Shown piece by piece: positions 14,380 to 36,857 of a stretch of DNA of 64,000 bases (position 1 is the stretch's first letter; each line of letters opens with the position of its first letter). Location of the stretch: contig CANJIM010000004.1 of assembly GCA_947474495.1 (NCBI GenBank), positions 517-64,516 on the forward strand, in the 5' to 3' direction. The notes under the pieces were generated by a model. It saw nothing but the letters and a program-made list of their open reading frames with translations. It ran no database searches and was not told the origin of the DNA. The position numbers and the translations under genes were made by a program. The stretch is from Rhodospirillaceae bacterium. GTDB taxonomy: Bacteria > Pseudomonadota > Alphaproteobacteria > SMXQ01.

Positions 14380-14923
14380 ACCGATAAACCTCCGGTTTAA
14401 TCCCCCTGCAAACCTGCCGACGAGGGATCATGGAACAGTGAATTTGGGTCGCGCTACTTGCTTCGCCCCGACACCCGACCCAGGAACCCCCTCGGCCGGA
14501 CCCGTGCCTAAAAGCACGTAGCATGGATAGCCTGCCCCGGATGTGCTTGCAATCTGGGCAAAAAACTTGCCCCAGCACTGTCGCATTTTCGCCACATTTC
14601 GGAAAATTGCCATTTTATCAATGGGTTGACTTGAGGCGGGTGACGCAGGGACCGCCCGGCATCTCGCCGAAAAGCTACATCTCCTTGAAATACATACAAA
14701 AAGTCCGATCACGCGCAAAATAGACGTCGGGCCGGCCTAGCGCGATGCCCAATCTCTAGGTGCGGCGCTCCATCAGACGCTAGATGCTTGGCTCTGACGC
14801 CGCGGGGGCTTTGATCTGGGCGATGTTTTGCCAGGCATCGCGCTTTGTCTGGCGCCGCCAGACGGCTGTGATAAATGCTGACCTCGCATTTTGCCTTTTC
14901 AGATCCGGATTGCCGCACCCACC

Positions 14924-16591: not shown

Positions 16592-18259
16592 ATGGCCACC
16601 GCGCTTCACGCCCTCGCGCTGCGCGCCTATCAAGGCGGCCGTCATGCCGAAGCGGCCGACCACTGCCGCGCGCTGCTGCGCAAATCGCCGGACGATCTGC
16701 CGGCGCTGCAAATGCTCGGCGCCATCGCCGCTGCCGGCGGACAATTGGGCGAGGCGCTCGATCTGGCGCGCCGCGCCGCGGCGCTGGCGCCGGACAATCC
16801 CGATACCCAAGGCGCGCTCGGTGCCTTGCTGGCGCAAAGCGGCGACGCCGCCGGCGCGCTGGCGCCGCTCGAGCACGCGCTGGCGCGGCAGCCGCGCAAC
16901 GCCGGCCTGCACAACAGTCGCGCCGACACCCTGCAGCGGCTCGGCCGCTTCGCCGAGGCGCTCGCCGCCTATGATCGGGCGTTGGTCGCCGGACCGCCGC
17001 ATCCCGAGGCCCTGCTGCAGCGCGGCCATGTTTTATTGGCACTGCACAAGCCGGCCGAGGCGCTAGCGAGCTTCGGGAAATCCCTGGCGCAGCGCGGCGA
17101 CGCGCGCCGCATCCATTGTGGCCAGGGGCTGGCCCTGTTGGCGCTCGGCCGCGCCGACGACGCAGCGGCGAGTTTCGAGCGCGTTCTGGCGCTGGCGCCC
17201 AAGGATGCCAATGCCCTCAACAATCTTGCCGTCGCCCGGCATCAGCAGGGTCGCTACGACGAGGCCATGGCGCTCTATGAGCGACTCCTGGCAGGCGCCC
17301 CCGACGATTCTCCGGCGCGGTTCGGCCGGGCACAATTGCACCTCGCCCATGGCCGCTTCCCCGCGGGATGGGACGATCACCGCTGGCGCCAATCGGCGGC
17401 GGAACATCGCGCAGCGCTGTATCAAGAACGCCTGCCGGGGGATCTCACCGGGCAAACTTTTTGGCTCCGCAAGGATCAGGGCCTAGGCGACGAGATTTTC
17501 TTCCTCCGCTTCGCGCCGGCTCTCAAGCGGCGCGGCGCCCATGTGATCTATCAAGCCGGGACCAAGATCGCCGGGCTGCTGCGCCGCCCGCCCGTGCTTG
17601 GCACGGCGCTCGACGGGGTGCTCGACGAGGCGGCGCCGCTGCCCGAGACGGCGCGCGTGCTGTCGGTCGGCGACCTGCCCTACGCCCTCGGCCCCGACAG
17701 CGAGACGCCGCCGCCGCTGGCGCTACAGCCGGACGCAGACCAGTCGGCCGCCATCGCCGCGCGTCTCGCGGCGCTCGGGCCGCCGCCCTACATCGCCGTG
17801 ACCTGGCGCGCGGGAACCTTGGAAAGCAACGCGCTCTACAAGGCAGTGCCGCTGGCGGCGCTGGCCGCCGCGGTGGCGCCGCTGCCCGGCACGCTGATCT
17901 CGGTGCAACGCCTGCCGGCCGCGGGCGAAGGCGCCGCCTTCGCCGCCGCCGCCGGCCGGGCTTTGCACGACCTCTCGGACCTCAACGACGATCTCGAGGC
18001 CATGCTCGCGCTGATGGCGCGACTCGACGACTATGTCGCCGTCAGCAACACCAACGTGCATCTGCGCGCCAGCGCCGGCCGGCCGTCGCGCTTGCTGGTG
18101 CCGATGCCCGCCGACTGGCGTTGGATGGCGGCGGGCGACGAGTCGCCGTGGTTTCCAGGCTCGCCGATTTACCGCCAGGCGTTTGGCGGCTCATGGGATG
18201 CGGCGCTCGCCCGCCTGTCGGCCGATCTCATCGCGGTATTCAGCCTCGCCACTCTGTGA
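16592..18259 (+). CDS. Modular TPR-repeat glycosyltransferase, paralog 2 (TPR plus GT9-like)
   Basis: Same architecture as paralog 1. The C-terminus has DDYVAVSNTNVHLRASAGRPSRLLVPMPADWRWMAAGDESPWFPGSPIYRQA. It starts 3 nt after the paralog 1 stop. Confidence 0.7.
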   Translation: MATALHALALRAYQGGRHAEAADHCRALLRKSPDDLPALQMLGAIAAAGGQLGEALDLARRAAALAPDNPDTQGALGALLAQSGDAAGALAPLEHALARQPRNAGLHNSRADTLQRLGRFAEALAAYDRALVAGPPHPEALLQRGHVLLALHKPAEALASFGKSLAQRGDARRIHCGQGLALLALGRADDAAASFERVLALAPKDANALNNLAVARHQQGRYDEAMALYERLLAGAPDDSPARFGRAQLHLAHGRFPAGWDDHRWRQSAAEHRAALYQERLPGDLTGQTFWLRKDQGLGDEIFFLRFAPALKRRGAHVIYQAGTKIAGLLRRPPVLGTALDGVLDEAAPLPETARVLSVGDLPYALGPDSETPPPLALQPDADQSAAIAARLAALGPPPYIAVTWRAGTLESNALYKAVPLAALAAAVAPLPGTLISVQRLPAAGEGAAFAAAAGRALHDLSDLNDDLEAMLALMARLDDYVAVSNTNVHLRASAGRPSRLLVPMPADWRWMAAGDESPWFPGSPIYRQAFGGSWDAALARLSADLIAVFSLATL

Positions 18260-18299: not shown

Positions 18300-19025
18300 T
18301 TGTCAGGTTCTCCGTTCCGTGTGTATGTCGGCTGGGACAGCCGTGAAGAGATCGCCTATGATGTTTGCCGCGAGTCGCTGCAGCACCACGCGTCGATTCC
18401 CGTCGAGGTGATCCCGCTCCAGCAAGGCGAGTTGCGCGCGCGCGGCCTTTACACGCGCGACGCCGATCCGCTGGCCTCGACTGAGTTCACCTACACGCGC
18501 TTTCTCGTGCCCCATCTCGCGGGATACGACGGCTGGGCGCTTTATTGCGACTGCGATTTCCTGTGGACCGGCGACATCGCCGGTCTCGCCGCATACGCCG
18601 ATCCGGACCACGCCGCGCGCTACGGCGCGCTCTGCGTGCAGCACGACTATCGTCCGACCGAAACCACCAAGATGGACGGCAAGGTGCAGACGAGCTATCC
18701 GCGGAAGAACTGGTCGAGCCTGATCCTGTTCAATTGCGCCTATCCGCAGACGCGGCGCCTGACGCCCGAGGTGGTCAACCGCGAGAGCGGCGCCCATCTC
18801 CACCGCTTCCAGTGGCTCGATGACGCCGCGATCGGCGCCGTGCCGGAGACCTGGAACTGGCTCGAAGGCTGGAGCAAGAAGCCGGCCGGCGCGCCGCCCA
18901 ACGTCGTGCATTACACGCGCGGCGGCCCGTGGTTCGCCGATTGGCAGAATGTCGACTACGGCGATCTCTGGCTCGCCGAAGCGGCGCGGATTACGACGGC
19001 GAAGTCCGCCGCGCCAGGCCCTTGA
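18300..19025 (+). CDS. Putative small GT-A/DxD-type glycosyltransferase-like protein. The start is uncertain (TTG 18300 or GTG 18321); the track ORF from 18033 is an upstream extension.
   Basis: VYVGWDSREEIAYDVC, a DxD-like CDCDFLW motif and WNWLEGWS. It has no confidently recognised family and is embedded between TPR-GT paralogs 2 and 3. Confidence 0.45.
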   Translation: MSGSPFRVYVGWDSREEIAYDVCRESLQHHASIPVEVIPLQQGELRARGLYTRDADPLASTEFTYTRFLVPHLAGYDGWALYCDCDFLWTGDIAGLAAYADPDHAARYGALCVQHDYRPTETTKMDGKVQTSYPRKNWSSLILFNCAYPQTRRLTPEVVNRESGAHLHRFQWLDDAAIGAVPETWNWLEGWSKKPAGAPPNVVHYTRGGPWFADWQNVDYGDLWLAEAARITTAKSAAPGP

Positions 19026-20893
19026 GCGCGACGATTTCTCAGGCGCTGCAGACGGCGCTGGCGGCGCATAAGGCGGGGCGCCTGGCCGAAGCCCAAGCCG
19101 CCTATGAAAGCATTCTCGGAATCGATCCGGACAATCCCGATGCTTTGCATCTCTCCGGTTTGGTCCGTCTGCAGCGCGGCAATGCCGCCGTCGCGCGCGA
19201 TCGTCTCGCCCGCGCCGTGGCGCTGCGTCCCCGAATGGCGCCTTATCATATGAATCTCGGTCGGGCGCAGCAGGCTCTGGGACTGTCTGGGGAGGCGGTT
19301 GCCAGCTTTCGTCAAGCTGCCGCGCTAGCACCAGGCGAGGGCGCTGTTTGGCAGCATCTCGCCCTCGCGCTGCGCGGCCAAGGTGATGTCGTCGGCGCTA
19401 TCGATGCCCTGCGCCGCGCCGCGCAAGCGGCGCCGCACGACGCTGCGCCGGCCAACAACCTGTCCGCCATTTTGCTGGAACAAGGCCGTCTCGAGGAAGC
19501 CTGGCCGGCGATTTCGCGCGCCCGGTCGCTCGCGCCGGACAATGCCTTGACGCTATGCAACGAAGGCCAGGCGCTGCTGCTTGAGGGGCGGGCCGCCGAG
19601 GCGCTCGTTCCGCTGCGCCGCGCTGTCGTCGCGCTGCCAGACAATGCCATGATTCTCAATAGTCTCGGCGTCGCACTGCAAGATTCGCAACAGGTCGCCG
19701 AAGCGGTTGACGTGCTGGCACGCGCCGTCGCTCTCGCGCCCACGAGTCCCATCCTCCGCGTCTCCTATGGCAACGCGCTGAAAAAGCACGGTTGCTATGA
19801 CGCGGCGCTGGCGGAATTCGAACAGGCCCTGGCAATGCGGCCGGATGTTGCGGAAATTCATTCCCATATCGGCACCTGCCATGACGCGCTTCTACGCCAC
19901 GACGCAGCCATCGCCTCTTATGATCGCGCGCTGACGTTGAAACCCGACTACGCGCGGGCGCAGCAAAACCGCGCGATGACGCTGCTGACGCTGGGCCACT
20001 TCAAGAACGGTTGGCAGGACTATGTCGCCCGCGACAACAAGCCGAACCTGCTGCTGAACTTGCTCGCGTCCCCCCATGGCGCCGACGACATTCGCGGCCA
20101 GCGTGTTTTATTGTGCGGCGAGCAGGGCCTCGGCGACGAGATTTTCTTTTTGCGCTTCCTGCCTGAACTTCGGCGCCGTGGCGTCGCGCGCGTGACCTAT
20201 ATCGCCGATGCGAAAATCGCAGCGCTGCTGGCGCGTTGCGACGGCCTCGATGCGGTGCAGACGGCGGCAGATGCCTTGCCGCCGGCCGAGACGACCATCG
20301 CCATCGGTGATCTGCCGCTGGTGCTGCGGATGACGACGGCTGGGCAGATTCCGCCTTCGATCTCATTGCCGCCTCTGCCGACGCGCATGGCCGAGATCGC
20401 CGCCCGTCTCGCGGCTTGCGGGCCGCCGCCCTATATCGGTGTGACATGGCGAGCGGGGATCGCCGCCCGTCTCGGCGCCTTGTTCAAGCTCGCGCCGCTG
20501 GCCGACCTCGGAACCTGTCTTCGCGTATTGTCCGGCACGCTGATCGCGCTGCAGCGTCTGCCGCAGGAGGGTGAAATCGCCGCCTTAGCCGCCGCCGCCG
20601 GCAAAGTCGTGCACGACCTCACTGCCCTGAATGACGATCTCGAGGCTATGCTGGCCCTGCTGGCGCAGCTCGACGATTACATCGCCGTCAGCAATACCAA
20701 TATGCATCTGCGCGCTGCCGCCGGCCGGACCAGCCGCGTGCTGGTGCCCTGTCCGCCGGAATTTCGCTGGATGGCGAGCGGCGATGAATCGCCCTGGTTC
20801 CCCGGATCGCCGCTGTATCGCCAAGCCGTCGACCGCACCTGGACGGTGGCGTTGGCGCGTTTGTCTGCTGATCTCCGTGCTGCCGTCGGTTAG
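19022..20893 (+). CDS. Modular TPR-repeat glycosyltransferase, paralog 3 (TPR plus GT9-like)
   Basis: The TTG at 19022 overlaps the upstream stop (TTGA coupling). The C-terminal region is ~75% identical to paralog 2 (DDYIAVSNTNMHLRAAAGRTSRVLVPCPPEFRWMASGDESPWFPGSPLYRQA). Confidence 0.7.
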   Translation: MSATISQALQTALAAHKAGRLAEAQAAYESILGIDPDNPDALHLSGLVRLQRGNAAVARDRLARAVALRPRMAPYHMNLGRAQQALGLSGEAVASFRQAAALAPGEGAVWQHLALALRGQGDVVGAIDALRRAAQAAPHDAAPANNLSAILLEQGRLEEAWPAISRARSLAPDNALTLCNEGQALLLEGRAAEALVPLRRAVVALPDNAMILNSLGVALQDSQQVAEAVDVLARAVALAPTSPILRVSYGNALKKHGCYDAALAEFEQALAMRPDVAEIHSHIGTCHDALLRHDAAIASYDRALTLKPDYARAQQNRAMTLLTLGHFKNGWQDYVARDNKPNLLLNLLASPHGADDIRGQRVLLCGEQGLGDEIFFLRFLPELRRRGVARVTYIADAKIAALLARCDGLDAVQTAADALPPAETTIAIGDLPLVLRMTTAGQIPPSISLPPLPTRMAEIAARLAACGPPPYIGVTWRAGIAARLGALFKLAPLADLGTCLRVLSGTLIALQRLPQEGEIAALAAAAGKVVHDLTALNDDLEAMLALLAQLDDYIAVSNTNMHLRAAAGRTSRVLVPCPPEFRWMASGDESPWFPGSPLYRQAVDRTWTVALARLSADLRAAVG

Positions 20894-22044
20894 ACCGGCG
20901 CGATCACCTTCATCGCCAGCAGCGAGCGCAGCAGCTCGCCGCGCGCCGCGTCGGCGATCTGCGGGAAGGCGGCGGCGAGCGCGGCATCGGCGAACACCTG
21001 TTGTCTGATGATCCAGGCGACGGCGCTATTGAACCCCGGCGGGATCGGCGTGCTTTTGCCGGCGCGCGCGAGCGCCCAACCGCCGCCTTGCGCCACCACC
21101 TTGAAGTCAGCGGCCGTGACGCGATAGCGGGGCGCCGCCGCGCGATAGCGATATGCGTCCTGGAATTGGCATAGCGCGGCCAGATTGACTGGGTCGCTCG
21201 CCATCTCGGCGAGCCGTTGGCCGAGCGCCTGCAGCCGCGCGGCGAAGGCGGCCTCGCCGGCGCCCGCCTCGCGGCCGTGGCGGCGCGGCAGATCGGCGCG
21301 GAACAGCGGCTCCTCGACGGCGCGGGCGAACAACGCGCTGACGACATCGAGGCCGATGACGGCGACGGCGCCGAAGGCGATATGGATGGTGCGCTCGGAG
21401 AGCGCGACGGCGTCGTGATACTGGCCGCGCGGCAAATAGAGAAGATCGCCGGGCTTCATCAGCACCTCGAGGGCGATCCTGCCCTTGGCCTGCTCGTGAA
21501 AGGCGCGCGTCTGGCTCTTGAAGGTCGGATGCTCGATCGGATTGTTGATGCGTCCTTCGTAGATGCGCCACAGCTTCTCGCCATGGACATGCACGGCAAA
21601 GACGTCATGGGTGTCGTAATGGCTGGCGAAAGCTTGGCGCTCGCGCGGGGAGCTGTAGAGATTTGCCTGCACCTTCGATTCGAGGGCGTCTTCCAGCGTC
21701 TGTGCCAGCCCAGCGACCGCGGCCAGGCCGGGTGCCGCCATGTCGATGTCGTTGAGCACGAGGCTGGCGCCACGGTTCAGCAGCGCGCGGACCTTCGGCG
21801 CATCGGGCGCGCCGTTGGCGGCAAGATATTCGGTGCCTGGCACCATGGCGCTGTCGCGCGCCATTTGCAGCGATTGTGCGCCCCACAGGCCGGGTGCGGC
21901 GATGAGTTCGTCGAGCTTGGCGCGTGACATGATGTCGGAAAATTTGTCCGCCTCGCCGGGCACATGCAGCGGCGCGTGGCCGTGATGGCGCTCGAAGAAT
22001 TGTGCCGGCGTGATCGGCGCGAGAATGTCGGTGAAGGAGACCAT
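20890..22044 (-). CDS. JmjC/cupin-4 family (ribosomal-oxygenase-like) Fe(II)/2OG oxygenase domain protein
   Basis: HYDTHDVFAVHVHGEKLW ... YLPRGQYHDAV fits the HxD...H jelly-roll pattern of Cupin_4/JmjC proteins. Confidence 0.6.
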   Translation of the reverse strand: MVSFTDILAPITPAQFFERHHGHAPLHVPGEADKFSDIMSRAKLDELIAAPGLWGAQSLQMARDSAMVPGTEYLAANGAPDAPKVRALLNRGASLVLNDIDMAAPGLAAVAGLAQTLEDALESKVQANLYSSPRERQAFASHYDTHDVFAVHVHGEKLWRIYEGRINNPIEHPTFKSQTRAFHEQAKGRIALEVLMKPGDLLYLPRGQYHDAVALSERTIHIAFGAVAVIGLDVVSALFARAVEEPLFRADLPRRHGREAGAGEAAFAARLQALGQRLAEMASDPVNLAALCQFQDAYRYRAAAPRYRVTAADFKVVAQGGGWALARAGKSTPIPPGFNSAVAWIIRQQVFADAALAAAFPQIADAARGELLRSLLAMKVIAPV

Positions 22045-22809: not shown

Positions 22810-23694
22810 TTGTCAGAAGCGCACGCGCCGGGCGGCACAGCAATCGTTTATTATCCCGAAATCAAGCCCTGGATCATTAAGGATTTGGCCGAACGATTCT
22901 GCGCGGAATTCACCAAGCGCGGTCATCGCAGCGCGCTGATCAATAGCCCGCTCGCAGGCTATGACACTTACTATCACTTCAATTATCTACAGTGTCGCGG
23001 CGTCTTGCCCAATACGAAAAATTTCACATACGTCACCCATGTGAATACGCCGGCCAAACTCTCGCTGCTGCGCGGCCAGGCGGAGGCCGGTATCGTCGGC
23101 ATTTGCATGTCGGAAGATACCGCGCGTCGCCTGCGCGAGCTCACCGGATTCAACCGGTTCGTGGGGTTGACGCCGCCGGCGCTGCGCTACGGGGAGTTTC
23201 CCGATCTCAGCATCTTGATCGCGAGCCGGCTCTATGACGACGGCAGAAAAAACCTGACGACGATGAAAGAGGCTTTGGACCGCTTGAGGGGACCAAACAG
23301 CGTTTTGAACATTATGGGCTCGGGCTGGGAAGAGTTCATTGCGGCCTATAAAGATCAATTCAAAGAGATCAATTACCACCCGGTCTTCTCGGAGCGGACT
23401 TACCTGGAGCTGATCGAGGCGACGAACCTGCTAATATACTCAGGATTCGACGAGGGCGCGATCTCTGTGCTGGATTATCTCGCGAGCGGCAAACGCGTTT
23501 TGACGACCGCTCAAGGCTATCACTTGGATTATGCGGATTGCGCAAATCTATATTTGTTTTCCGACGCGCCGACACTCGATGCGCAAATCTCGAAAATACA
23601 AATGGAAATCAACCTCGCTCGGGCCCAGCATAAAAGAGTGACAGACTGGGACGGCTATTGCGCGCGGCATATCGAGCTGTTCGGCAAAAGCTAG
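22810..23694 (+). CDS. Putative glycosyltransferase (GT-B C-terminal-domain-like); first gene of the low-GC island
   Basis: RLYDDGRKNLTTMKEALDRL ... VLNIMGSGWEEF ... YLASGKRVLTT resembles the GT4 C-terminal domain. GC is clearly lower than the genome background. Confidence 0.5.
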   Translation: MSEAHAPGGTAIVYYPEIKPWIIKDLAERFCAEFTKRGHRSALINSPLAGYDTYYHFNYLQCRGVLPNTKNFTYVTHVNTPAKLSLLRGQAEAGIVGICMSEDTARRLRELTGFNRFVGLTPPALRYGEFPDLSILIASRLYDDGRKNLTTMKEALDRLRGPNSVLNIMGSGWEEFIAAYKDQFKEINYHPVFSERTYLELIEATNLLIYSGFDEGAISVLDYLASGKRVLTTAQGYHLDYADCANLYLFSDAPTLDAQISKIQMEINLARAQHKRVTDWDGYCARHIELFGKS

Positions 23695-23695
23695 C

Positions 23696-24631
23696 TCATA
23701 CGGTCGCCGGCGGTTTTCGGTCGAGATAGCCGAGCAGGACATCGACCATGATCTTGCGGTTTCCCTTTAGATGAAAAATGAATTTGCTATCGAGTTGGGC
23801 CTTGTTGTAGCGGACGGTTTCCTCGAAGGAAAAATTAAACCTATCTACGGGAAAGACACAGATCCGGGGCTTTAGAGCTAATTTCGCGGCTTTCTTCTTA
23901 TCTAAGAAAACGCTGGTGATCGTATTGAGACTTAGCTGGCCGCCGCGCCAGCGCCGGATGTCTCCGTAATAGTCGGCAAAAAACTTTTCTTGGACCAACT
24001 TTTCGTATGTCGCGACATACGAATTGAAGAACGCTTTTACCAAACCTGTTCGGGGGGGGGCGGCAAAAATAACCCCTTCGTTGAACGGCATAAGATTAGA
24101 CGCGATTCTTAGCGTTACACCTATATCGAAATTCTTTGTAAACAGGTTGCTCAGGTTCAATCCGACGAAGGTGTCGCTATCGAGAAACGCGGTTTGATGA
24201 TCGAACATGCTCGATCTGACGTAGGCCGCCATCGCATAGGCCCTTTCGTATAGTGGCTGTGCGGCGTTGACGTCGAGGACCACCCTGACAATGTTTTCGC
24301 TTTCGGGAATGTTGAAGTGCGGATCGTTCGATACGAAGATGATTCGCAGATTTTTAAAAAGACGGAGCGTGTTCGATAAAGATTTCCAAATAATATAATT
24401 GTAGTCGTATTTACCGAGATCGAGATTCAAGTCGGGATATTTTAGTAGCTGATTTTCAGGCGCCATCGCGACGTGGAACATAAATATATTACAATTTATT
24501 TCTTCTGCCGCCGCGCGATACGCAGAATTGAAACTTGACTTGAGGGCATCAATTTTCGCATTCGCGGCGGGTTCGGGCGTCAAACTAAAACAGGGTGAGG
24601 CCGCCCTCAATACTTGTTCAATGGGAATCAT
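23696..24631 (-). CDS. Hypothetical sugar-transferase-like protein (low GC) containing a C9 homopolymeric tract in the coding strand
   Basis: 311-aa intact ORF with a DSDTF DxD-like motif and AT-rich codon usage. The poly-G run at 24052-24060 encodes AAPPRTG. Confidence 0.5.
   Translation of the reverse strand: MIPIEQVLRAASPCFSLTPEPAANAKIDALKSSFNSAYRAAAEEINCNIFMFHVAMAPENQLLKYPDLNLDLGKYDYNYIIWKSLSNTLRLFKNLRIIFVSNDPHFNIPESENIVRVVLDVNAAQPLYERAYAMAAYVRSSMFDHQTAFLDSDTFVGLNLSNLFTKNFDIGVTLRIASNLMPFNEGVIFAAPPRTGLVKAFFNSYVATYEKLVQEKFFADYYGDIRRWRGGQLSLNTITSVFLDKKKAAKLALKPRICVFPVDRFNFSFEETVRYNKAQLDSKFIFHLKGNRKIMVDVLLGYLDRKPPATV
24052..24060. repeat. Homopolymeric G9 (C9 on the coding strand) tract inside the CDS 23696..24631
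   Basis: Directly visible as cggggggggg/cgg at 24051-24063. Confidence 0.9.
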
Positions 24632-24668
24632 TTGCTTCTCTGGTTCCGATAAATTTCTTTAAGTGACG

Positions 24669-25448
24669 TTAGTGGGCAACGAGGACGGCATAGCCGTACC
24701 AGGTCGTCTCGTCGAGGCCCTTGTCCGTCATCCACCCACCTGTTTCGCAGATTTTGAAGCCGCAGTGCGAAGCGTGACGTTCAATTTCCGGCGCGAACAA
24801 ATAGCGCATGATATGGGTTTCGTGGATGTGCGCCGCCTCGGATCTTAAACCGTTAGATATGGTCACGTCGTAATGAACCGCCACTATGTTGCGTTCGACG
24901 TCCATCTCTGGCGTCGCGGTGCGGATGACTTGCGTTCCGTCCTTGCTGAGGCTCTTGACGCGTCTCTCGGGCCTATCGTGGAGTACCGCCGGACCGTACC
25001 AAAAATCGAAAATAAAAACGCCTCCCGGCCTTAGAGCGGCCCGTGCCGTCTTGAAAAATCCAGCGAGCGATTCGTCGGTCGTTTGGTAATTGACGACATG
25101 GAACAAGGAGACTGCCACATCGAATATGCCCAAGCCGACAGCGTTCGACACGTCCGCTTGGACCAGCGTCACACGCGGACGCGTGTTTTCTGGAAGACGC
25201 GAGACGCTGGCGCGGGCCAAATCCAGCATGCCGGGGCTTATATCGACGCCCTTGACCACATAACCGGCCGCAGCGAACTGGGTCGTGTGGCGCGCGTTGC
25301 CGCAACCGAGATCGATGATCGATTTTGCCTGCGGGGCGTATGCAGAGATTTTGGCTTTAACGAACTCGGACTCTAAAGCGTAGTCCTTGTCCGTATAAAA
25401 CAGTTCGTAATACAGGGCATATCGATCAAAGATCGCCACGGAGGACAT
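24669..25448 (-). CDS. Class I SAM-dependent methyltransferase, TylM1/DesVI-like (predicted sugar N,N-dimethyltransferase)
   Basis: N-terminus FDRYALYYELFY..KDYALESEFVKA and IIDLGCGNARHT (motif I) match the N-terminal pattern of dTDP-aminosugar N-methyltransferases. Confidence 0.6.
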   Translation of the reverse strand: MSSVAIFDRYALYYELFYTDKDYALESEFVKAKISAYAPQAKSIIDLGCGNARHTTQFAAAGYVVKGVDISPGMLDLARASVSRLPENTRPRVTLVQADVSNAVGLGIFDVAVSLFHVVNYQTTDESLAGFFKTARAALRPGGVFIFDFWYGPAVLHDRPERRVKSLSKDGTQVIRTATPEMDVERNIVAVHYDVTISNGLRSEAAHIHETHIMRYLFAPEIERHASHCGFKICETGGWMTDKGLDETTWYGYAVLVAH

Positions 25449-26544
25449 CCTTCAGAGCCGTCGCGGACCGATCGATTTCGTCCTTGGTCGACCCGACGCC
25501 GCTGGGGAGATAAAAGCCGCGGTCCGCGAGCCGCTCCGACTGGGGGTAGCTCTCACCCGCGAAGAGGCCCAAATCGCGAAGCGCCGGCTGCTTGTGCATG
25601 GGCCAGAAGAAATGTCGAGCATCGACGCCTTTGCGCCGCAGGGCCGCGATCGCGGCGGCGGCATCGAGAGGCGCCTCATCGGCCAGGACGACGCCGAATA
25701 CCCAATAGATATTTTTGGCATAATCTGTTTTTGCCTCGGGCAATCGCAATAGAGGTTGGCTGTCGAGACGCTCCCGGTACCAGCGGCCGATCTGGCGCTT
25801 CTTTTCAATCGTGCGCGCAATGACCTCGAGCTGCGCCACGCCGACGGCGGCTTGGAGGTTGCTCATTCTGAAATTCCAGCCTAGCTCGGCGTGGATGTAG
25901 CGCCGCTCCTTGTCGAAAAATAGGTTTCGCGCCGCGCGGCAGCGCTCGGCCAGATCGGGATCGTCGGTCAAGACCATGCCGCCTTCGCCGGTTGTGACGT
26001 GCTTGTTGGGATAAAAGCTGACCGTGCTGATGTCGCCCAGCGATCCGACCTTGCGTTCCTTATATTGTTGGCCTTGCTGTTCGGCGGCATCTTCGATGAT
26101 CTGCAAGCCCCGCTCACGGGCGAGCGCGAAGATAGGATCCATGTCGACTGGTAGGCCGAAGATATGGACGACCATGATGGCTTTGGTTTTGGCCGTGATG
26201 CGCGCCGCGACTTGCCGGACATCCATGTTCCAGGTGACTGGATCGCAATCGACGAGAACGGGCGTCGCGCCGGCGCGTACGATGGCCGCCGCACAGGAGA
26301 TGATCGTGAAAGACGGCAAGATGACTTCATCGTCCGGCCCGATCTTCAGCGCGGCCACGGCGATGTCGAGGGCGCAGCTGCCGTTGCAGACGGCGATGCC
26401 ATGCTTTCGGCCGACGAATGCGGCGAACTCAGCCTCGAGCCGTTTGACGAACGGCCCCTCGGAAGAAATCCAACCGGAATCGATGCATTCGTTCAGGTAT
26501 TTTTTTTCGTTGCCCTCGAGGAGCGGCCGATTCACCGGGATCAT
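25426..26544 (-). CDS. DegT/DnrJ/EryC1/StrS family PLP-dependent sugar aminotransferase (FdtB/TylB-like)
   Basis: NRPLLEGNEKKYLNECIDSGWISSEGPFVKRLEAEFAAFVG, a typical DegT N-terminus. The start is set at an internal Met (the track ORF extends to 26613). Confidence 0.8.
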   Translation of the reverse strand: MIPVNRPLLEGNEKKYLNECIDSGWISSEGPFVKRLEAEFAAFVGRKHGIAVCNGSCALDIAVAALKIGPDDEVILPSFTIISCAAAIVRAGATPVLVDCDPVTWNMDVRQVAARITAKTKAIMVVHIFGLPVDMDPIFALARERGLQIIEDAAEQQGQQYKERKVGSLGDISTVSFYPNKHVTTGEGGMVLTDDPDLAERCRAARNLFFDKERRYIHAELGWNFRMSNLQAAVGVAQLEVIARTIEKKRQIGRWYRERLDSQPLLRLPEAKTDYAKNIYWVFGVVLADEAPLDAAAAIAALRRKGVDARHFFWPMHKQPALRDLGLFAGESYPQSERLADRGFYLPSGVGSTKDEIDRSATALKDVLRGDL

Positions 26545-26548
26545 GGGT

Positions 26549-26980
26549 TTAATCGAAATTGAATGTGTCGGGCGGAGGACAGTCGAATCGTGTCTTGTCG
26601 TCGTCCCCGACATAGGGGCCTTGTTTGATCTCGACCATGTTCAGCTCTTCGAGCACCTCGAAACCATGACCGCCCGAGATCAGCAGAATGACGTCGCCGG
26701 CGCATAGAATGCGGCTCGTCTTGTACGCGTTGATCTGATCGTAAAAATCTACGCGCAGCCGTCCTTTGCGGATGAAGAGCGTTTCTTGCGTATAAAGAAC
26801 TTCTCGGCGGATAGGATTGTGCGTATGGGCCGGAATCAATTTCCCCGATGGGTAAGACATGGCGCCCATCTGCTGGGAAAAATTATTCTGCGTAAAAAAA
26901 TGAATGCCCGGCTCGTTAAAATCGGCAGGCAGAATAATGGCGTAGAGGATTGAGTCGATATATATGTATTCTTGCTGCAT
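26549..26980 (-). CDS. dTDP-4-keto-6-deoxyhexose 3,4-ketoisomerase (FdtA/QdtA/Tyl1a family, WxcM-like cupin)
   Basis: ~140-aa cupin with HTHNPIRREVLYTQETLFIRKGRLRVDFYD and DVILLISGGHGFEVL. Its size and motifs are typical of FdtA. Confidence 0.65.
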   Translation of the reverse strand: MQQEYIYIDSILYAIILPADFNEPGIHFFTQNNFSQQMGAMSYPSGKLIPAHTHNPIRREVLYTQETLFIRKGRLRVDFYDQINAYKTSRILCAGDVILLISGGHGFEVLEELNMVEIKQGPYVGDDDKTRFDCPPPDTFNFD

Positions 26981-28385: not shown

Positions 28386-29540
28386 TTACTGCGTGACGTT
28401 GACGGCCGGACGATCGGTGACGCGTTGCATGCTCTGGTATTTTTCCAGCGCCATATTCATGCGCGAGATCAAGTCGGCCGGCACTTGCGGGAAGCCCCCG
28501 GCATCGATCTTTTGCGCTTGCGGCGCCGGGGTGGCCGCGGCGGCGGGCGCGCTATCGACAGGCGGCGCCATCGGATTTTGCGCGGCTGAGTCGGCGCTGC
28601 GCAGCGCGGCGTTCTTCGGCGTGTAGTCGAGGAAGGTGGGGCTAACCCCCGGCGTCGTCGCGGCGCGAATCGTTGTGTCGAGCGAGCCGGCGTTGCGCGG
28701 CTGCGCTTGAGGCGCGCCACCCTGCGCCCGTGTCGTTTGCAACTGGCGGAGCAGCGCCGGATCGCCGGCGAGCGTTTGCGGCGTCGGCAGCGCGCTGCCG
28801 ATGCGGCCGCGCGTGACCGCCGTGGCGAGCGGCACGGCGCTGCCGCCGGCGCCATTGGCCGCTTCATGAACCGGCGCATTGACCGGCAGGGCGCGTGTGT
28901 TGGCGGCGGGCGCCGCGCGCGTTTGAACTGGGGCCGCCGCCGCTTGCGGCGCGGCGGCTTGCGCCACGATGATCGGGGCGGCCGGCGCCTCGGCCGGCGC
29001 GGCCTCGGCGAGCATGGTCGCCGGCGCCACGGTTGTGGGATCGGGGCGCGGCGAGAAATCGCCGGCGTAGAGCACCGGCTCGCGTTCGGGCCGGCCGGTC
29101 GGGGTCGTCGGATCAGTCGGCAGATCGCCATCGCCCTTCATGGCGAGGAGATGCTGGCCGAAGTCGCGACCGGTTTCCTCTTCGACCAGCGAATCGATGC
29201 TGGACGCGATCAGCCCGATGACGCCGCCGAACAAAGTGCCGCCGGCGATGCGCGAGGCCGGGCCGATGCTGTCGCCGGTGATGGAGCGATAAACGGTGCC
29301 GACGATGGGGATATGTTGCAGCGGATTGATGACGTCGAGCAGCGCGCCGAAGCTGAAGCCCTCCTTGCCCCAGATGCGGTCGAAGAAGCCGCGCTCGTCC
29401 TTGCCCGCAACCTTATCGGCGGCCTTGTCGGGCGCGGCCAAGCTGTCGGCCGGCTTCACGCTGTCGCCCTTGGCGGGCGGCGTGCCGAACGATGGCGTGG
29501 CGCCCACGGGGGGCAGGCTGGCGATATCGAGGTTGGACAT
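28386..29540 (-). CDS. Hypothetical protein with a conserved N-terminal region and a Pro/Ala-rich low-complexity C-terminal half
   Basis: Long ORF with coding-like composition and no recognisable motifs. Confidence 0.45.
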   Translation of the reverse strand: MSNLDIASLPPVGATPSFGTPPAKGDSVKPADSLAAPDKAADKVAGKDERGFFDRIWGKEGFSFGALLDVINPLQHIPIVGTVYRSITGDSIGPASRIAGGTLFGGVIGLIASSIDSLVEEETGRDFGQHLLAMKGDGDLPTDPTTPTGRPEREPVLYAGDFSPRPDPTTVAPATMLAEAAPAEAPAAPIIVAQAAAPQAAAAPVQTRAAPAANTRALPVNAPVHEAANGAGGSAVPLATAVTRGRIGSALPTPQTLAGDPALLRQLQTTRAQGGAPQAQPRNAGSLDTTIRAATTPGVSPTFLDYTPKNAALRSADSAAQNPMAPPVDSAPAAAATPAPQAQKIDAGGFPQVPADLISRMNMALEKYQSMQRVTDRPAVNVTQ

Positions 29541-31124: not shown

Positions 31125-31838
31125 TTGGCCATGAACGACACGAACGGCGGCAAGACCGGCAAGCGCATCTTTCTGGTGGACGACGATGGCGACCTGCGGT
31201 CGGCGCTCACCGAGCAGCTGCAGCTCCATGAGGAATTCCAGACGGTTGAGGCCGACACGGCGGCCAAGGCGCTCGAGGTGGTCAAGACCGACTATTTCGA
31301 CGCCATCATCCTCGACGTCGGCCTGCCCGACATGGACGGCCGCGAGGTCTGCCGCCTGATGCGCCGCTCGGGCGTCAAATGCCCCATCGTGATGCTGACC
31401 GGCGCCGATTCGGAAGCCGACACGATTTTGGGGCTCGATTCGGGCGCCAACGACTACATCACCAAGCCCTTCCGCCTCGGCGTGCTGCTCGCGCGGCTGC
31501 GCGCCCAGCTGCGCACGCATGAACAAAGAGAAGACGCCGTCTTCACTATCGGCCCCTACAGCTTCCGCCCCTCGGCGAAGCTGCTGCAGGAAGCCGACGG
31601 CAAAAAGAAAGTGCGCCTGACCGAGAAGGAAACGGCGATCCTCAAATATCTCTATCGCGCCAAGGACCATGTGGTCGGCCGCGATACGCTGCTGGGCGAA
31701 GTGTGGGGCTACAATGCCGGCGTCACCACGCACACGCTGGAGACGCACATTTACCGCCTGCGCCAGAAGATCGAGCGCGATCCGGCGGCGGCGGAAATTC
31801 TTTTGACCGAGCGCGGCGGCTATCGGTTGGCGCCGTAA
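31125..31838 (+). CDS. OmpR-family two-component response regulator (receiver plus winged-helix domain)
   Basis: Receiver motifs IFLVDDDGDL and LDVGLPDMDG, and the C-terminal trans_reg_C motif LTEKETAILKYL...TLETHIYRLRQKI. Confidence 0.85.
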   Translation: MAMNDTNGGKTGKRIFLVDDDGDLRSALTEQLQLHEEFQTVEADTAAKALEVVKTDYFDAIILDVGLPDMDGREVCRLMRRSGVKCPIVMLTGADSEADTILGLDSGANDYITKPFRLGVLLARLRAQLRTHEQREDAVFTIGPYSFRPSAKLLQEADGKKKVRLTEKETAILKYLYRAKDHVVGRDTLLGEVWGYNAGVTTHTLETHIYRLRQKIERDPAAAEILLTERGGYRLAP

Positions 31839-31874
31839 GAGCGCGCCTGCCGGGCCGGCTGGCGACCTTCGCCG

Positions 31875-33362
31875 TTGCCATGGGCGTCAAGTTCTTCCAT
31901 ATCTAGCGCCGCGCCGACGGGGCGTTTGGGGGAACTCTTGTCCAAGCATAAAGACGACATTCGCCAGCATTTCGATGCCATCGCGCCATCGCGCGCCGCA
32001 TGGATCGAGAAGAACGCCTTTTTCTACGAATCCGACTGGCGCTACATGCGCTTCCTGATTCCCGAGGGCAAACGCGTTCTCGAACTCGGCTGCGGCAACG
32101 GCGCTCTGCTCGCGCGGCTGCGCCCGTCGCGCGGCGTCGGCATCGACATCAGCCCGCGTATGATCGAGCGGGCGAAGCTCGACTTTCCCAACCTTGAATT
32201 CGTCGTCGGCGACATCGAGGACGCCGCCACCCTGGCGGCGCTGCCCGGCCCGTTCGATTACGTCGTGCTGTCGGACACGCTCGGCAACCTCGAAGACTGC
32301 CAGGCCATGCTCGACCGCCTGCACCAGGTCTGCCACAGCGAAACGCGCATCGTCTGCGCCTATTATTCGCCGCTGTGGGAGCCGGTGATGACGCTGGCGG
32401 AAAAGGCCGGCGGCAAGATGCCGCAGCCGCAGCAGAACTGGTTCTCCGCCGAGGATATCGCCGCCCTGCTCGATCTCGGCGACTTCGACGTGGTGCGGCG
32501 CGAATGGCGCCAGCTGCTGCCCAAGCGGGCCTTCGGCCTCGGCTGGCTGGTGAACTCGACGCTGGCGGCGCTGCCGCTGCTGCGCCGGCTCTGCCTGCGC
32601 CATTATGTCGTCGCCCGTTCGATGCGCCATGTCAGCCCGGACGCGCCCTCGGTCACCGTCGTCGTGCCCTGCCGCAACGAGCGCGGCAATATCGAAGCGG
32701 CGGTGACGCGCACGCCGAAGCTCGGTCCCAAGCAAGAAATCATCTTCGTCGAAGGCAACAGCAACGACGGCACCTATGAGGAATGCCTGCGCGTGCAGGC
32801 GGCCTACCCCGATCACAGCATTCGCGTGATGAAGCAGGAAGGCCGCGGCAAGGGCGACGCCGTGCGCAAAGGCTTTGCCGCCGCCGAAGGCGATATCCTG
32901 ATGATTCTCGATGCGGACCTCACCGTGCCGCCGGAATCGCTGCCCAAATTCGTCGCCGCCATCGCCTCGGGCAAGGGCGAGTTCGTCAACGGCACGCGGC
33001 TGGTCTATCCGTTCGAGAAGGGCGCCATGCGCTTCTTGAACTTCCTCGCCAATCGTAGCTTCGCGGCGATCTTCTCCTGGCTGCTCGATCAGCGCTTCAC
33101 CGACACCCTGTGCGGCACCAAGGTGCTGCGCAAGCGCGACTACGACCAGATCGTCGCCAACCGCGCCTATTTCGGCGATTTCGATCCGTTCGGCGATTTC
33201 GATCTGATCTTCGGCGCCGCCAAGCTGAGCCTCAAGGTCGTCGAAGTGCCGATCCGCTACGCCGACCGCACCTATGGCGAAACCAACATCTCGCGCTTCC
33301 GCCACGGCTGGCTGCTGCTGCGCATGGTGGCCTTTGCCTTCCGCAAGATGAAGGTCGCGTGA
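31875..33362 (+). CDS. Bifunctional class I SAM-methyltransferase::GT2 (DPM1/ArnC/GtrB-like polyprenyl-phosphate glycosyltransferase) fusion protein. The likely true start is the TTG at 31938, which is preceded by GGGGGAA.
   Basis: N-terminal domain has VLELGCGNGALL (MTase motif I). C-terminal domain has VVVPCRNERGNI, ILDADLT and DTLCGTK, typical of GT2 Dpm1-like enzymes. Confidence 0.75.
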   Translation: MPWASSSSISSAAPTGRLGELLSKHKDDIRQHFDAIAPSRAAWIEKNAFFYESDWRYMRFLIPEGKRVLELGCGNGALLARLRPSRGVGIDISPRMIERAKLDFPNLEFVVGDIEDAATLAALPGPFDYVVLSDTLGNLEDCQAMLDRLHQVCHSETRIVCAYYSPLWEPVMTLAEKAGGKMPQPQQNWFSAEDIAALLDLGDFDVVRREWRQLLPKRAFGLGWLVNSTLAALPLLRRLCLRHYVVARSMRHVSPDAPSVTVVVPCRNERGNIEAAVTRTPKLGPKQEIIFVEGNSNDGTYEECLRVQAAYPDHSIRVMKQEGRGKGDAVRKGFAAAEGDILMILDADLTVPPESLPKFVAAIASGKGEFVNGTRLVYPFEKGAMRFLNFLANRSFAAIFSWLLDQRFTDTLCGTKVLRKRDYDQIVANRAYFGDFDPFGDFDLIFGAAKLSLKVVEVPIRYADRTYGETNISRFRHGWLLLRMVAFAFRKMKVA

Positions 33363-34096
33363 CGGGCGACATGCAGAGCGTCGGCGACATCTTCGCTGGC
33401 CATCGCCGCGCCTGGGACAAGAAGCGCGCGCTGCGGCTCTATTACCAGCGTGAGATCTTCGAGCGCATCGTCGCGCAATTGCGTCCCGGTCCGACGCTGG
33501 AGATCGGCACCGGGCCCGGCTTCTTCGCCGATTATCATCCCGGCATGACCGGGCTCGATATCGCCGCCTTTCATCCCGGCGTCATTCCCGGCGACGTGCA
33601 TGACATGCCGTTTCCTGATGCCAGCTTCGCCAATGTCGTCGGCGTCGATGTGCTGCATCATCTGGCCAAGCCCGGCCGCGCCTTGAGCGAAATCGCCCGC
33701 GTGCTGCAGCTGAACGGCCGGCTGGTGCTGGTCGAGCCGTGGACGGGCCCGGTCGGACGCTTGTTCTACCGTTACCTGCATCATGAAGATTGCAGCCCGG
33801 TCACGGAGCCTTGGACGCAGGCCTTCGCCGGCGGCAAGGATGCCATGGACGGCAACGCGATGATTCCCTGGACGCTGTTCGCTGCACGGCTCGGTGAATT
33901 GTCGGCGCATGCGCCGCTGCGCCTCGCTTATTGCCAGCCGTTCGGTATCGCCGCCTATGCGGCGACCGGCGGCTTCAAGGACATCGGCCTGCCCTGGCCG
34001 GTGATCGATGCCTTGTGCCGCATCGAAGCCCTGTTGCCGGACGAGATCCACCGCGTCGCGGCGCTGCGCGCCCTGTTCGTCTTGGAGCGGCTTTAA
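33359..34096 (+). CDS. Class I SAM-dependent methyltransferase (Methyltransf_11-like)
   Basis: TLEIGTGPGFFA motif I. The GTG start overlaps the upstream stop (GTGA). Confidence 0.65.
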   Translation: MTGDMQSVGDIFAGHRRAWDKKRALRLYYQREIFERIVAQLRPGPTLEIGTGPGFFADYHPGMTGLDIAAFHPGVIPGDVHDMPFPDASFANVVGVDVLHHLAKPGRALSEIARVLQLNGRLVLVEPWTGPVGRLFYRYLHHEDCSPVTEPWTQAFAGGKDAMDGNAMIPWTLFAARLGELSAHAPLRLAYCQPFGIAAYAATGGFKDIGLPWPVIDALCRIEALLPDEIHRVAALRALFVLERL

Positions 34097-35907: not shown

Positions 35908-36857
35908 GAGGGCTGCTCCCCAGGACGGACAGGCAGCTTCAACCACAGGATCGCGCCGGGCAGGCTCGCCGCCAGGATCATCAGGCCGAAAGCGATCGAC
36001 GCGGCGAGAATGTCGCTGTCGGGCCAATCCATGCCGGTCAAGGCGACGACCATCGCGCCTTCGCGCAAGCCCCAGCCGGCGACCGACACGGGGATCATGG
36101 TGATCAGCATGACCATGGGCACGACGGCGAGGCACAGCCAGGCCGAGATCGGCAGGCCCAAGGCGCGGAACAGCAGGAAGAAGATGGCAACGCTCAGCAG
36201 ATGAATGACGAGGCCGAGCGCCAGGGCCAGCCCGGCGGCGCGGCCATCGGCGAAGAGGTGGCGGCCGGTGGCGGCGAGGCTGGCGAGCCACGGCCAGCGG
36301 CCGAGCAGCTTGTCGCAAAAGGCGCTGGCGCGCCCGAGAGTCAGGAACAGCAGGGCCGCGCCCCACGCCGCCGCGAGCAGGAGGATCGCGCTGATGCGCA
36401 GCGTCTCGTTCGGCAACAGGGCGAGGAATTGCGCGAAGCCGACGAGAATCAGCAGGGTCAAGGCGATCACGCCGATGACGCGGTCGAGCAAGGCGGCCTC
36501 GACGGCGCGGCCTAGCGTCATGCCGCGGCGGGTCAGCAGCCAGGCGCGGATCGCGTCGCCGCTGATGAAGGTGACGAGCAGTTGGCTGAAGAAGCCGCCG
36601 ACCAGGGTGGCGCGCAAGGCAAAGCCTTGGCTGATGCGGGCGCCGCACAGGCCGACGACCAGCACGAAGCGCCAGCCGGCGATCGCCACCTGAAGGAAGG
36701 CCAGCAGCAAGGCGGCAGCAACGATGGCCGGATCGAAGCGGCCGAGCGCAGCGAAGGCGTCGCCGAGATCGACGCGCGTCGACAGCCACCACAGCAGCGC
36801 CGCCGTCAAACCGACCTTGCCGGCGATGGCCGCGCCGGCGACGACCCGCTTGTTCAT
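35904..36857 (-). CDS. Flippase-like / lysylphosphatidylglycerol-synthase-TM-domain (UPF0104, YbhN-like) membrane protein
   Basis: Eight hydrophobic segments; WLLTRRGMTLGRAVEAALLDRVIGVIAL is typical of LPG_synth_TM-family proteins that accompany GT2 enzymes. Confidence 0.6.
   Translation of the reverse strand: MNKRVVAGAAIAGKVGLTAALLWWLSTRVDLGDAFAALGRFDPAIVAAALLLAFLQVAIAGWRFVLVVGLCGARISQGFALRATLVGGFFSQLLVTFISGDAIRAWLLTRRGMTLGRAVEAALLDRVIGVIALTLLILVGFAQFLALLPNETLRISAILLLAAAWGAALLFLTLGRASAFCDKLLGRWPWLASLAATGRHLFADGRAAGLALALGLVIHLLSVAIFFLLFRALGLPISAWLCLAVVPMVMLITMIPVSVAGWGLREGAMVVALTGMDWPDSDILAASIAFGLMILAASLPGAILWLKLPVRPGEQPS

Follow-up and report, generated by a model that had tools for sequence, protein, structure and literature searches.

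A widespread cupin, aminotransferase and methyltransferase operon with a possible role in the synthesis of an N-methylated amino-6-deoxyhexose in Gram-negative bacteria

Organisation of the operon and its surroundings

The locus belongs to an uncultured soil alphaproteobacterium and lies in a stretch of 64 kb, referred to here as the window. Three neighbouring open reading frames on the minus strand, at positions 24669-26980, encode a methyltransferase, a DegT aminotransferase and a cupin, in agreement with the first-pass annotation of this DNA. With the glycosyltransferase gene that follows them and a convergent gene, the locus comprises:

26549-26980, minus strand: cupin, 143 aa, gene 1 of the operon; belongs to a large uncurated family distinct from FdtA
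25426-26544, minus strand: PLP-dependent sugar aminotransferase, 372 aa, DegT family, perosamine-synthase-like (PF01041, 362 bits)
24669-25448, minus strand: class I SAM-dependent methyltransferase, 259 aa, TylM1/DesVI sugar N-methyltransferase type
23696-24631, minus strand: GT-A-fold glycosyltransferase (GT8-like, retaining type), 311 aa, final gene of the operon
22810-23694, plus strand: convergent gene, 294 aa, possible GT-B (GT4-like) glycosyltransferase, a weak assignment

The open reading frame of the aminotransferase spans 25426-26613, with the start at 26544 in the public gene call (372 aa, MIPVNRP...). The cupin and aminotransferase genes are separated by 4 nt, the aminotransferase and methyltransferase genes overlap by 23 nt, and 37 nt lie between the methyltransferase and GT-A genes, so that the short gaps and the overlap point to one operon. 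The GC3 values of the methyltransferase, aminotransferase and cupin reading frames are of the coding type, and packing and coding signal together support a single transcription unit from the cupin to the GT-A gene. The operon is located on a low-GC island, in which a promoter and terminator scan gave no hit above chance. Of the window ORFs that were scanned with Pfam, none encodes an acyltransferase of the hexapeptide or GNAT type, consistent with the earlier statement that an FdtC-type N-acetyltransferase is absent.

Two glycosyltransferase genes and an upstream array of TPR-glycosyltransferase proteins had also been proposed. The product of 23696-24631 adopts a Rossmann-like fold of the GT-A type and carries a DxD motif, and it is likely to be the transferase for the modified sugar. 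The second assignment remained weak, as the 294-aa protein has no Pfam or NCBIfam match and its sole similarity is to the C-terminal domain of WaaG (E = 0.018). Among the three upstream proteins, the TPR halves are clear, and the remaining C-terminal parts, each of about 300 aa, gave no Pfam, NCBIfam or PDB match and are putative glycosyltransferases at most. In outline, the architecture agrees with the one described for FlmG, which has an N-terminal TPR part and a C-terminal GT-B part, the comparison being one of descriptions (PMC7591256).

Family assignment of the methyltransferase, aminotransferase and cupin

The methyltransferase starts with the N-terminus quoted in the first-pass annotation (...FDRYALYYELFYTDKDYALESE...IIDLGCGNARH) and is recognised by Methyltransf_25 and related Pfam models. 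In the PDB it matches DesVI best (E = 4e-16, residues 11-244 against 9-232). When the family profile was compared with the solved structures, DesVI (1.6e-33) and TylM1 (about 1e-27) were at or near the top, followed by the N-methyltransferase 5bsz and CalS10; these matches cover profile positions 6-231 and nearly the full length of the solved enzymes. Motif I (DLGCGNARH) is present, and the similarity extends from the Y-x-x-Y helix at the N-terminus to the substrate domain at the C-terminus. Judged by sequence, the enzyme thus belongs to the TylM1/DesVI sugar N-methyltransferases, as had been proposed from its N-terminus. The best NCBIfam match is a daptide amine N-methyltransferase with 65 bits, which is under the cut-off. 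The substrates of DesVI and TylM1 are 3-amino sugars. That the amine of an NDP-aminosugar may be methylated twice is suggested by context, namely the linkage to a sugar aminotransferase gene at all loci and a known fusion of a methyltransferase to a cupin.

The aminotransferase is a clear DegT protein, which upholds this part of the original assignment, but its placement with the C3 enzymes TylB, FdtB and QdtB was not supported. It aligns end to end with the GDP-perosamine synthase Per of Caulobacter crescentus (PDB 3BN1/3DR4) with 43% identity over 363 residues and 293-297 bits, as opposed to 194 bits for the C3 dTDP enzyme QdtB. In NCBIfam it scores highest with the LegC family, at 308 bits, below the cut-off of 420 for that family. 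GDP-perosamine synthase and the LegC family both act on GDP-sugars. The lysine forming the PLP Schiff base is retained (SFYPNK aligned with SFFGNK of Per), as expected for the DegT/DnrJ/EryC1 aminotransferases, which rules out a role as a ColD-type dehydratase. A legionaminic (nonulosonic acid) pathway, raised by the LegC match, was rejected because neither a NeuB-like synthase nor other Leg genes occur beside the three genes at any locus. All characterised relatives found in this analysis act at C4. However, in polyene clusters the mycosamine synthases share 69-73% identity with the perosamine synthases and have no diagnostic motif, so that C3 and C4 aminotransferases of GDP-ketosugars are indistinguishable by sequence (PMC8944477). 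The family of the enzyme is therefore clear, and the position that it would aminate is a prediction. The retained lysine, together with the DesVI, TylM1, 5bsz and CalS10 matches of the methyltransferase, supports the earlier notion of a module for an N-methylated amino-deoxyhexose.

The cupin had been assigned to the FdtA/Tyl1a 3,4-ketoisomerases, and its size agrees with the small cupin barrel of about 140 aa of this class. The assignment itself had to be abandoned. The window cupin does not match PF05523 (FdtA/Tyl1a/QdtA) at E≤0.01, and 20 relatives do not match it even at E≤10. The alignment of the cupin family with that of the FdtA family (PDB 2pa7 FdtA, 7n67, 5tpu) by hhalign gave a probability of 0.2%, and searches of all PDB sequences with the single cupin (phmmer) and with the family profile (hmmsearch) gave no match at E≤10. 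In these PDB, Pfam and hhalign comparisons, sequence similarity was detectable neither to FdtA nor to CapF or RmlC/WbcA. The family has an invariant H52-T-H54 motif, whose distance from the N-terminus is similar to that of His49/His51 in FdtA (RGxHAHK), but no alignment superposes the two motifs. From the conserved histidines, a metal site is predicted. Fold scores do not set epimerases apart from isomerases, with FdtA-type isomerases among the best fold matches.

The sole curated family that gives the cupin any sequence signal is WbuC (TIGR04366), with 24.2 bits for the window cupin and 23-32 bits for all relatives tested, below the curated cut-off of 42. WbuC is a family of cupin-fold metalloproteins with no assigned function, and the likeness therefore says nothing about the function of the cupin; titles and abstracts of the WbuC literature name it only as a gene for a cupin-fold metalloprotein in resistance-gene contexts. 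The cupin family forms 7403 clusters when grouped at 90% identity and 2605 when grouped at 50%, is not covered by Pfam or NCBIfam, and is labelled 'hypothetical protein' by PGAP. It is described by no database. At the genomic level, this size contradicts the suggestion that such sugars are rare on Gram-negative surfaces.

Two fusion proteins bear on the function of the cupin. In one, a cupin domain 54% identical to that of the window is joined to an SDR domain like GDP-L-fucose synthase (134 bits). In the other, a cupin is fused to a methyltransferase domain 32% identical to that of the window, which is evidence that cupin and methyltransferase probably work in one pathway. We propose that the cupin acts on an NDP-4-keto-6-deoxyhexose intermediate, either as an epimerase or as a 3,4-ketoisomerase.

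Conservation of the triad and nature of the nucleotide carrier

A scan of a genome collection with the cupin gave 8 MAG loci, the source genome not being included. Across all other loci whose contigs were long enough to judge (18 of 18), cupin, aminotransferase and methyltransferase genes adjoin or lie within 3 kb of each other, and with such recurrence the arrangement is not due to chance. This triad occurs in Verrucomicrobiota and in Alpha-, Beta- and Deltaproteobacteria, including cultured Azospirillum, Bradyrhizobium, Caballeronia and Neorhizobium. The cupin is very strongly conserved and always precedes the aminotransferase, and the methyltransferase is always linked, usually directly downstream. 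The usual setting is an O-polysaccharide locus of the ABC-transporter (Wzm/Wzt) type, generally with a glycosyltransferase as the next gene.

The GT-A gene of the window is absent from these 18 loci. A comparison with the sister genome L018 shows that the genes for the methyltransferase and the GT-A enzyme were swapped jointly, as one cassette, and the 294-aa gene was kept beside the GT-A gene (93.5%). At another locus, L016, homologues of the methyltransferase (37%), the GT-A enzyme (36%) and the 294-aa protein (53% over the available part) occur together, with only housekeeping genes and neither cupin nor aminotransferase upstream. The joint replacement and the co-occurrence are evidence for a probable tie between the GT-A enzyme and the methyltransferase. 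Since the L016 pair lacks the other two genes, the methyltransferase could use another substrate. It might act with the GT-A enzyme on a different target, for example in O-methylation of a glycan or methylation of the acceptor, while the product of cupin and aminotransferase is an amino sugar that stays free or is modified in some other way. The cassette exchange and the methyltransferase domains fused to some GT-A homologues fit this explanation as well. However, we consider it unlikely, as the methyltransferase is linked to cupin and aminotransferase at the 18 loci without the GT-A gene, a methyltransferase-cupin fusion is known, and the solved structures that it resembles most are those of N-methyltransferases acting on the amines of sugar nucleotides. 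Moreover, the L016 contig ends right after the trio, so that cupin and aminotransferase genes could lie beyond.

The window itself contains none of rmlA, rmlB, gmd and manC. Precursor genes that adjoin the triad are always gmd, fcl and manC, and in no locus examined rmlA or rmlB. In L001 and L002, a Gmd-like gene abuts the cupin gene, with 308-312 bits for TIGR01472 against 70 bits for the dTDP-glucose dehydratase model, and in Caballeronia NK8, genes annotated by PGAP as gmd, fcl and manC lie around those for the cupin and the aminotransferase. These adjoining genes and the likeness of the aminotransferase to perosamine synthase and LegC leave the dTDP carrier and the 3-position of the first-pass annotation unsupported, although C3 may still be the aminated position, and GDP is the most likely carrier nucleotide. 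It should be noted that, of about 19 independent loci, only 3 have GDP-pathway genes adjoining the triad.

This bears on the route originally proposed, in which an FdtA/Tyl1a isomerase, a TylB/FdtB C3 aminotransferase and a TylM1 methyltransferase would convert dTDP-4-keto-6-deoxyglucose to a dTDP-3-dimethylamino-3,6-dideoxyhexose. The triad shares with the dTDP-mycaminose and desosamine pathways (Tyl1a, TylB, TylM1/DesVI) the order of the chemistry, i.e., a cupin acting on a 4-keto-6-deoxy sugar nucleotide, amination by a DegT enzyme and methylation of the amine, and it has a methyltransferase of the same structural family, matched to DesVI and TylM1 near full length. In contrast, the cupin fails all sequence tests for FdtA, the aminotransferase is about 100 bits nearer to GDP-perosamine synthase than to QdtB, the context genes indicate GDP-mannose rather than dTDP-glucose, and one cupin relative carries a domain like GDP-fucose synthase. 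Furthermore, the known pathways belong to macrolide clusters, whereas the triad resides in surface-glycan loci of Gram-negative bacteria. A dTDP route consequently appears improbable.

Proposed pathway and biological significance

In the reading we favour, with a probability of about one half, the four-gene operon for the cupin, the aminotransferase, the N-methyltransferase and the GT-A enzyme, accompanied by the convergent fifth gene, serves to synthesise an N-methylated amino-6-deoxyhexose from GDP-mannose and to transfer it. A GDP-mannose 4,6-dehydratase, expected elsewhere in the genome, would provide GDP-4-keto-6-deoxy-D-mannose, which the cupin, probably metal-dependent, would rearrange. 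The step favoured for the cupin is an epimerisation beside the keto group, as by the Zn-cupin domain of CapF or by WbcA, with a 3,4-ketoisomerisation as a close alternative. The perosamine-synthase-like PLP enzyme would then aminate the keto carbon, presumably at C4 if the cupin is an epimerase, the TylM1/DesVI-like enzyme would add one or two methyl groups to the new amine with SAM, and the GT-A enzyme would move the sugar onto a glycan or protein.

One of the nearest described routes is that to GDP-perosamine (Gmd and Per/RfbE), with which the triad shares the related aminotransferase and, at some loci, the adjoining gmd and manC. This pathway needs neither a cupin nor an N-methyltransferase, however, and as both are constant in the triad, the product cannot be plain perosamine. 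For the cupin step, CapF of Staphylococcus aureus provides a precedent in which a metallo-cupin epimerase is linked to an SDR (PMC5393024), in this case a reductase fused to a Zn-dependent cupin epimerase that acts on a 4-keto-6-deoxy sugar nucleotide. The SDR of CapF is a UDP-sugar enzyme, whereas that fused to the cupin relative resembles GDP-fucose synthase, and the window cupin is a separate protein, with the gene of an aminotransferase rather than of a reductase next in line. Several observations speak against the favoured reading: the lack of gmd and manC in the window and their rarity beside the triad, the lack of detectable sequence similarity between the cupin and CapF, RmlC/WbcA or FdtA, and the L016 pair without cupin and aminotransferase. 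In addition, DesVI and TylM1 have 3-amino sugars as substrates.

The last point leads to a possible but less probable explanation, in which the cupin is a GDP-4-keto-6-deoxymannose 3,4-ketoisomerase unrelated to FdtA in sequence and amination takes place at C3, as by mycosamine synthase, yielding a GDP-3-(di)methylamino-3,6-dideoxyhexose of the N-methylated mycosamine type. Metal-dependent cupins catalyse sugar isomerisations of the enediol type. The gene order and logic resemble the triads Tyl1a-TylB-TylM1 and FdtA-FdtB-FdtC, the best solved relatives of the methyltransferase methylate 3-amino sugars, FdtA-type isomerases rank among the best fold matches of the cupin, and C3 and C4 enzymes cannot be told apart by sequence. 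Moreover, the 3,4-ketoisomerisation in mycosamine biosynthesis is a step with no known enzyme (PMC8944477). On the other hand, the cupin is unrelated in sequence to any known 3,4-ketoisomerase, its fusion to an Fcl-like SDR resembles the pairing of epimerase and 4-reductase in CapF rather than that of an isomerase, and the characterised relatives of the aminotransferase act at C4. Slightly less probable, and offered here as a speculation, is the view that the cupin is the first known isomerase converting GDP-4-keto-6-deoxy-D-mannose to the 3-keto sugar, unrelated to FdtA/Tyl1a, and that the operon product is a GDP-linked N-methyl or N,N-dimethyl mycosamine-type sugar displayed by many soil Gram-negatives on O-polysaccharides or glycoproteins. 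Literature searches for N-methyl or dimethyl perosamine or mycosamine, for a link between perosamine, cupins and N-methyltransferases, and for N-methylamino-dideoxyhexoses in rhizobial LPS returned nothing relevant.

The triad operon is widespread and unstudied. If the favoured reading is true, it represents a conserved pathway of three enzymes, leading to an N-methylated amino-deoxy sugar, that has never been described and is widespread in soil- and plant-associated Gram-negatives, being present in Verrucomicrobiota, Bradyrhizobium, Azospirillum, Neorhizobium and Caballeronia. Characterisation of the cupin would add a novel type of sugar-nucleotide epimerase or isomerase and could decide whether the missing GDP-sugar 3,4-ketoisomerase exists. 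That sister genomes differ by an exchange of the methyltransferase and transferase cassette suggests that variation of the surface is under selection. A basic methylated amine would alter the charge of the surface glycan and could thereby affect interactions with phages, hosts and antimicrobial peptides.

Operon, genomic island and distribution

The interval 24669-26980 contains three minus-strand ORFs with a coding-type codon bias, which together with the gene at 23696-24631 form a four-gene operon, and a fifth gene converges on it:

26549-26980, (-), cupin, 143 aa
25426-26613, (-), ORF of the DegT-family aminotransferase, with the start at 26544 in public gene calls, giving 372 aa
24669-25448, (-), methyltransferase, 259 aa
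23696-24631, (-), fourth operon gene, GT-A glycosyltransferase
22810-23694, (+), fifth gene, 294 aa, converging on the operon

The cupin and aminotransferase genes are separated by 4 nt, the aminotransferase and methyltransferase genes overlap (-23 nt), and a 37-nt gap precedes the fourth gene. The five genes constitute a low-GC island (22810-26980) with a GC content of 0.54-0.60 as opposed to about 0.65 in the flanks, and a GC3 of 0.57-0.74 as opposed to more than 0.8. It is bordered by a thiE-like gene and yggS, and the same island occupies this site in the related contig L018 from a sister genome. The window derives from a 65.9-kb contig of an uncultured alphaproteobacterium, near mnmE-gidA-parA-leuS. 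Between an array of TPR proteins and the island lies the gene of a 384-aa JmjC_2/cupin-4 protein (20890-22044; ribosomal-oxygenase-like), which also adjoins the island in L018. A Pro/Ala-rich protein, likewise of 384 aa (28386-29540), is encoded just past a YkuD gene and has no family match. A second envelope-related gene group at 31125-37674 includes an OmpR-type response regulator, a methyltransferase-GT2 fusion (31875-33362), another methyltransferase ORF, an LPG_synthase_TM membrane protein and an EEP-family phosphatase.

The three-gene arrangement described in the first-pass annotation is real and non-random: the ORFs are present, and of the 18 other loci of sufficient length for an assessment, all 18 combine the cupin with the aminotransferase and the methyltransferase. 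The metagenomic loci belong to Verrucomicrobiota and Alpha-, Beta- and Deltaproteobacteria, and the triad is also carried on plasmids or chromids by the cultured bacteria Azospirillum sp. TSA2s, Bradyrhizobium sp. ISRA443, Caballeronia sp. NK8, Neorhizobium galegae HAMBI 1141 and Neorhizobium sp. EC2-8. PGAP names the cupin "hypothetical protein". Downstream of the methyltransferase there is usually a glycosyltransferase, and the loci are mostly O-polysaccharide clusters of the Wzm/Wzt type (with a Wzt_C domain). On the plasmids of Azospirillum and Bradyrhizobium, the triad is flanked by genes with a sulfotransferase domain (L021 11387-12208; L022 7078-8768), a hint that these glycans are also sulfated. 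In two metagenomic loci (L003 11923-13620; L014 9541-10318) the aminotransferase or methyltransferase is split into two ORFs, which are either assembly frameshifts or pseudogenes.

Methyltransferase, glycosyltransferase and acceptor

In Pfam, the methyltransferase matches generic class I models only, and its best NCBIfam match, the daptide amine N-methyltransferase, is far below the cut-off. Among solved structures, DesVI is the best match (E 4e-16), followed by CalS10, the N-methyltransferase 5bsz and TylM1, and the DesVI alignment takes in both the YxxxY helix at the N-terminus and the C-terminal domain. A family profile built from 22 sequences retrieved DesVI (1.6e-33) and TylM1 (about 1e-27), followed by 5bsz and CalS10, in each case with nearly complete coverage, interspersed with a few structural-genomics methyltransferases without an assigned function. 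The earlier placement in the TylM1/DesVI family is upheld.

Compared with L018, the window shows 88-98% nucleotide identity over 21.8-29.0 kb except for one sharply bounded block at about 23750-25350, with 67-76% identity. The drop is limited to exactly the GT-A and methyltransferase genes, and these two appear to have been replaced together, which looks like a cassette replacement by recombination. In a further locus (L016 6163-8258), homologues of the methyltransferase (37% identical), the GT-A gene (36%) and the 294-aa gene (53%) form a trio; upstream there are only housekeeping genes, with no cupin or aminotransferase, and the contig stops immediately behind the trio. Both observations couple the methyltransferase and the transferase, as would be expected, for example, if the latter recognised the donor in its methylated form. 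They are also the chief argument for the rival view, in which the methyltransferase acts on another substrate.

Homologues of the GT-A protein are present in two independent flagellin loci (L019 8001-8954; L020 8001-9605), in both directly after an AsnB-like amidotransferase, which suggests that they take part in flagellin glycan synthesis. L019 additionally contains FlaG and a Maf-like gene, and L020 contains FlbT, FlaF and a TylF-type methyltransferase. LPS and a protein, for instance flagellin, are therefore equally plausible acceptors. A third homologue (L017) is located near a 401-aa protein resembling the C-terminal domains of the three tandem TPR proteins of the window (14891-16588, 16592-18259 and 18929-20893). 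These domains of about 300 aa have no match in Pfam or the PDB, and the architecture of an N-terminal TPR region followed by such a domain matches that of the flagellin glycosyltransferase FlmG (TPR 1-313, GT-B 309-596). A protein of about 241 aa (18300-19025) contains the motif DCD and resembles GT8 only very weakly (E 0.07); its homologue in an alphaproteobacterial flagellar locus (L020 4653-5379), near the GT-A homologue, is 35% identical. The 294-aa gene has a weak WaaG-like match (E 0.018).

Aminotransferase and origin of the sugar

The aminotransferase scores 362 bits against PF01041. Among solved enzymes, it is closest to the GDP-perosamine synthase of Caulobacter, with 293-297 bits, 43% identity across 363 aligned residues and conservation of the Schiff-base lysine, as opposed to 194 bits for QdtB, which acts at C3 of a dTDP-sugar. 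The best NCBIfam family, with a score below its cut-off, is LegC, also a C4 aminotransferase of a GDP-sugar. By sequence, the protein is therefore placed among the GDP-ketosugar enzymes and not with TylB or FdtB, as had been assumed.

The adjacent precursor genes, where present, belong to the GDP-mannose route. In L001 and L002, a Gmd-like gene adjoins the cupin (308-312 bits to gmd versus 70 to dTDP-glucose dehydratase), L012 has a partial gmd-like gene at the contig end, and in Caballeronia gmd, fcl and manC surround the cupin and aminotransferase. Such genes adjoin the triad in only 3 of about 19 independent loci; rmlA or rmlB stands beside it in none of those examined, and the 64-kb window contains no rmlA, rmlB, gmd or manC. 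GDP-mannose is the more likely origin of the sugar, and the dTDP carrier proposed earlier is not supported. The 3-amino position and the mycaminose type are likewise unsupported. Amination may occur at either position: according to a review on polyene sugars, the GDP-mycosamine (C3) and GDP-perosamine (C4) synthases are 69-73% identical and have no diagnostic motif (PMC8944477). The general idea of an N-methylated amino-deoxyhexose pathway is supported, as is the claim that N-acylation is missing, with no acyltransferase among the Pfam-scanned ORFs of the 64-kb window. An N-methylamino-3,6-dideoxyhexose has been reported from the LPS of Rhizobium trifolii; if this report is true, such sugars are not unknown in alphaproteobacteria.

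The cupin family and its predicted reaction

The assignment of the cupin to FdtA/Tyl1a could not be maintained. The window protein has no match in Pfam, and with a limit as lax as E ≤ 10, none of 20 relatives matches PF05523 (FdtA) or an RmlC-family model. No PDB sequence was retrieved with either the single sequence or the family profile. In an hhalign comparison with three aligned, solved members of the FdtA family (2pa7, 7n67, 5tpu), the probability was 0.2%. Among curated families, the sole signal comes from WbuC ("cupin fold metalloprotein"), with a score below the threshold, and WbuC itself has no assigned function. The cupin family is large and highly conserved, comprising 7403 clusters when grouped at 90% identity and 2605 representatives at 50% (E ≤ 1e-3), and members from different phyla are 56-70% identical. 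Invariant positions include H52-x-H54, GGH105GFE and many Arg/Lys residues. It is a new, uncurated family, for which epimerisation or 3,4-ketoisomerisation is predicted.

In some members, the cupin forms the C-terminus of a larger protein:

P0386, SDR domain resembling GDP-L-fucose synthase (134 bits), and a cupin 54% identical to that of the window
P0380 and P0376, SDR-cupin proteins similar to P0386
P0423, TylM1-like methyltransferase, 32% identical to that of the window, and a cupin
P0388, GT2 domain and a cupin

N-terminal regions of about 500 aa without a known domain are also joined to the cupin in this set, which further includes P0431 and P0474. Through these fusion partners, the cupin is linked to the methyltransferase and to enzymes of GDP-4-keto-6-deoxymannose. 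S. aureus CapF shares the SDR-cupin order: its Zn-dependent cupin domain acts as an epimerase on a 4-keto-6-deoxy sugar nucleotide, and the SDR domain then reduces the product (PMC5393024). Because of these fusions, we tilt towards a role of the cupin as an epimerase by analogy. According to a minority reading, it may be a 3,4-ketoisomerase acting on GDP-4-keto-6-deoxymannose, an enzyme that has never been identified (PMC8944477). If true, this would be the most interesting outcome.
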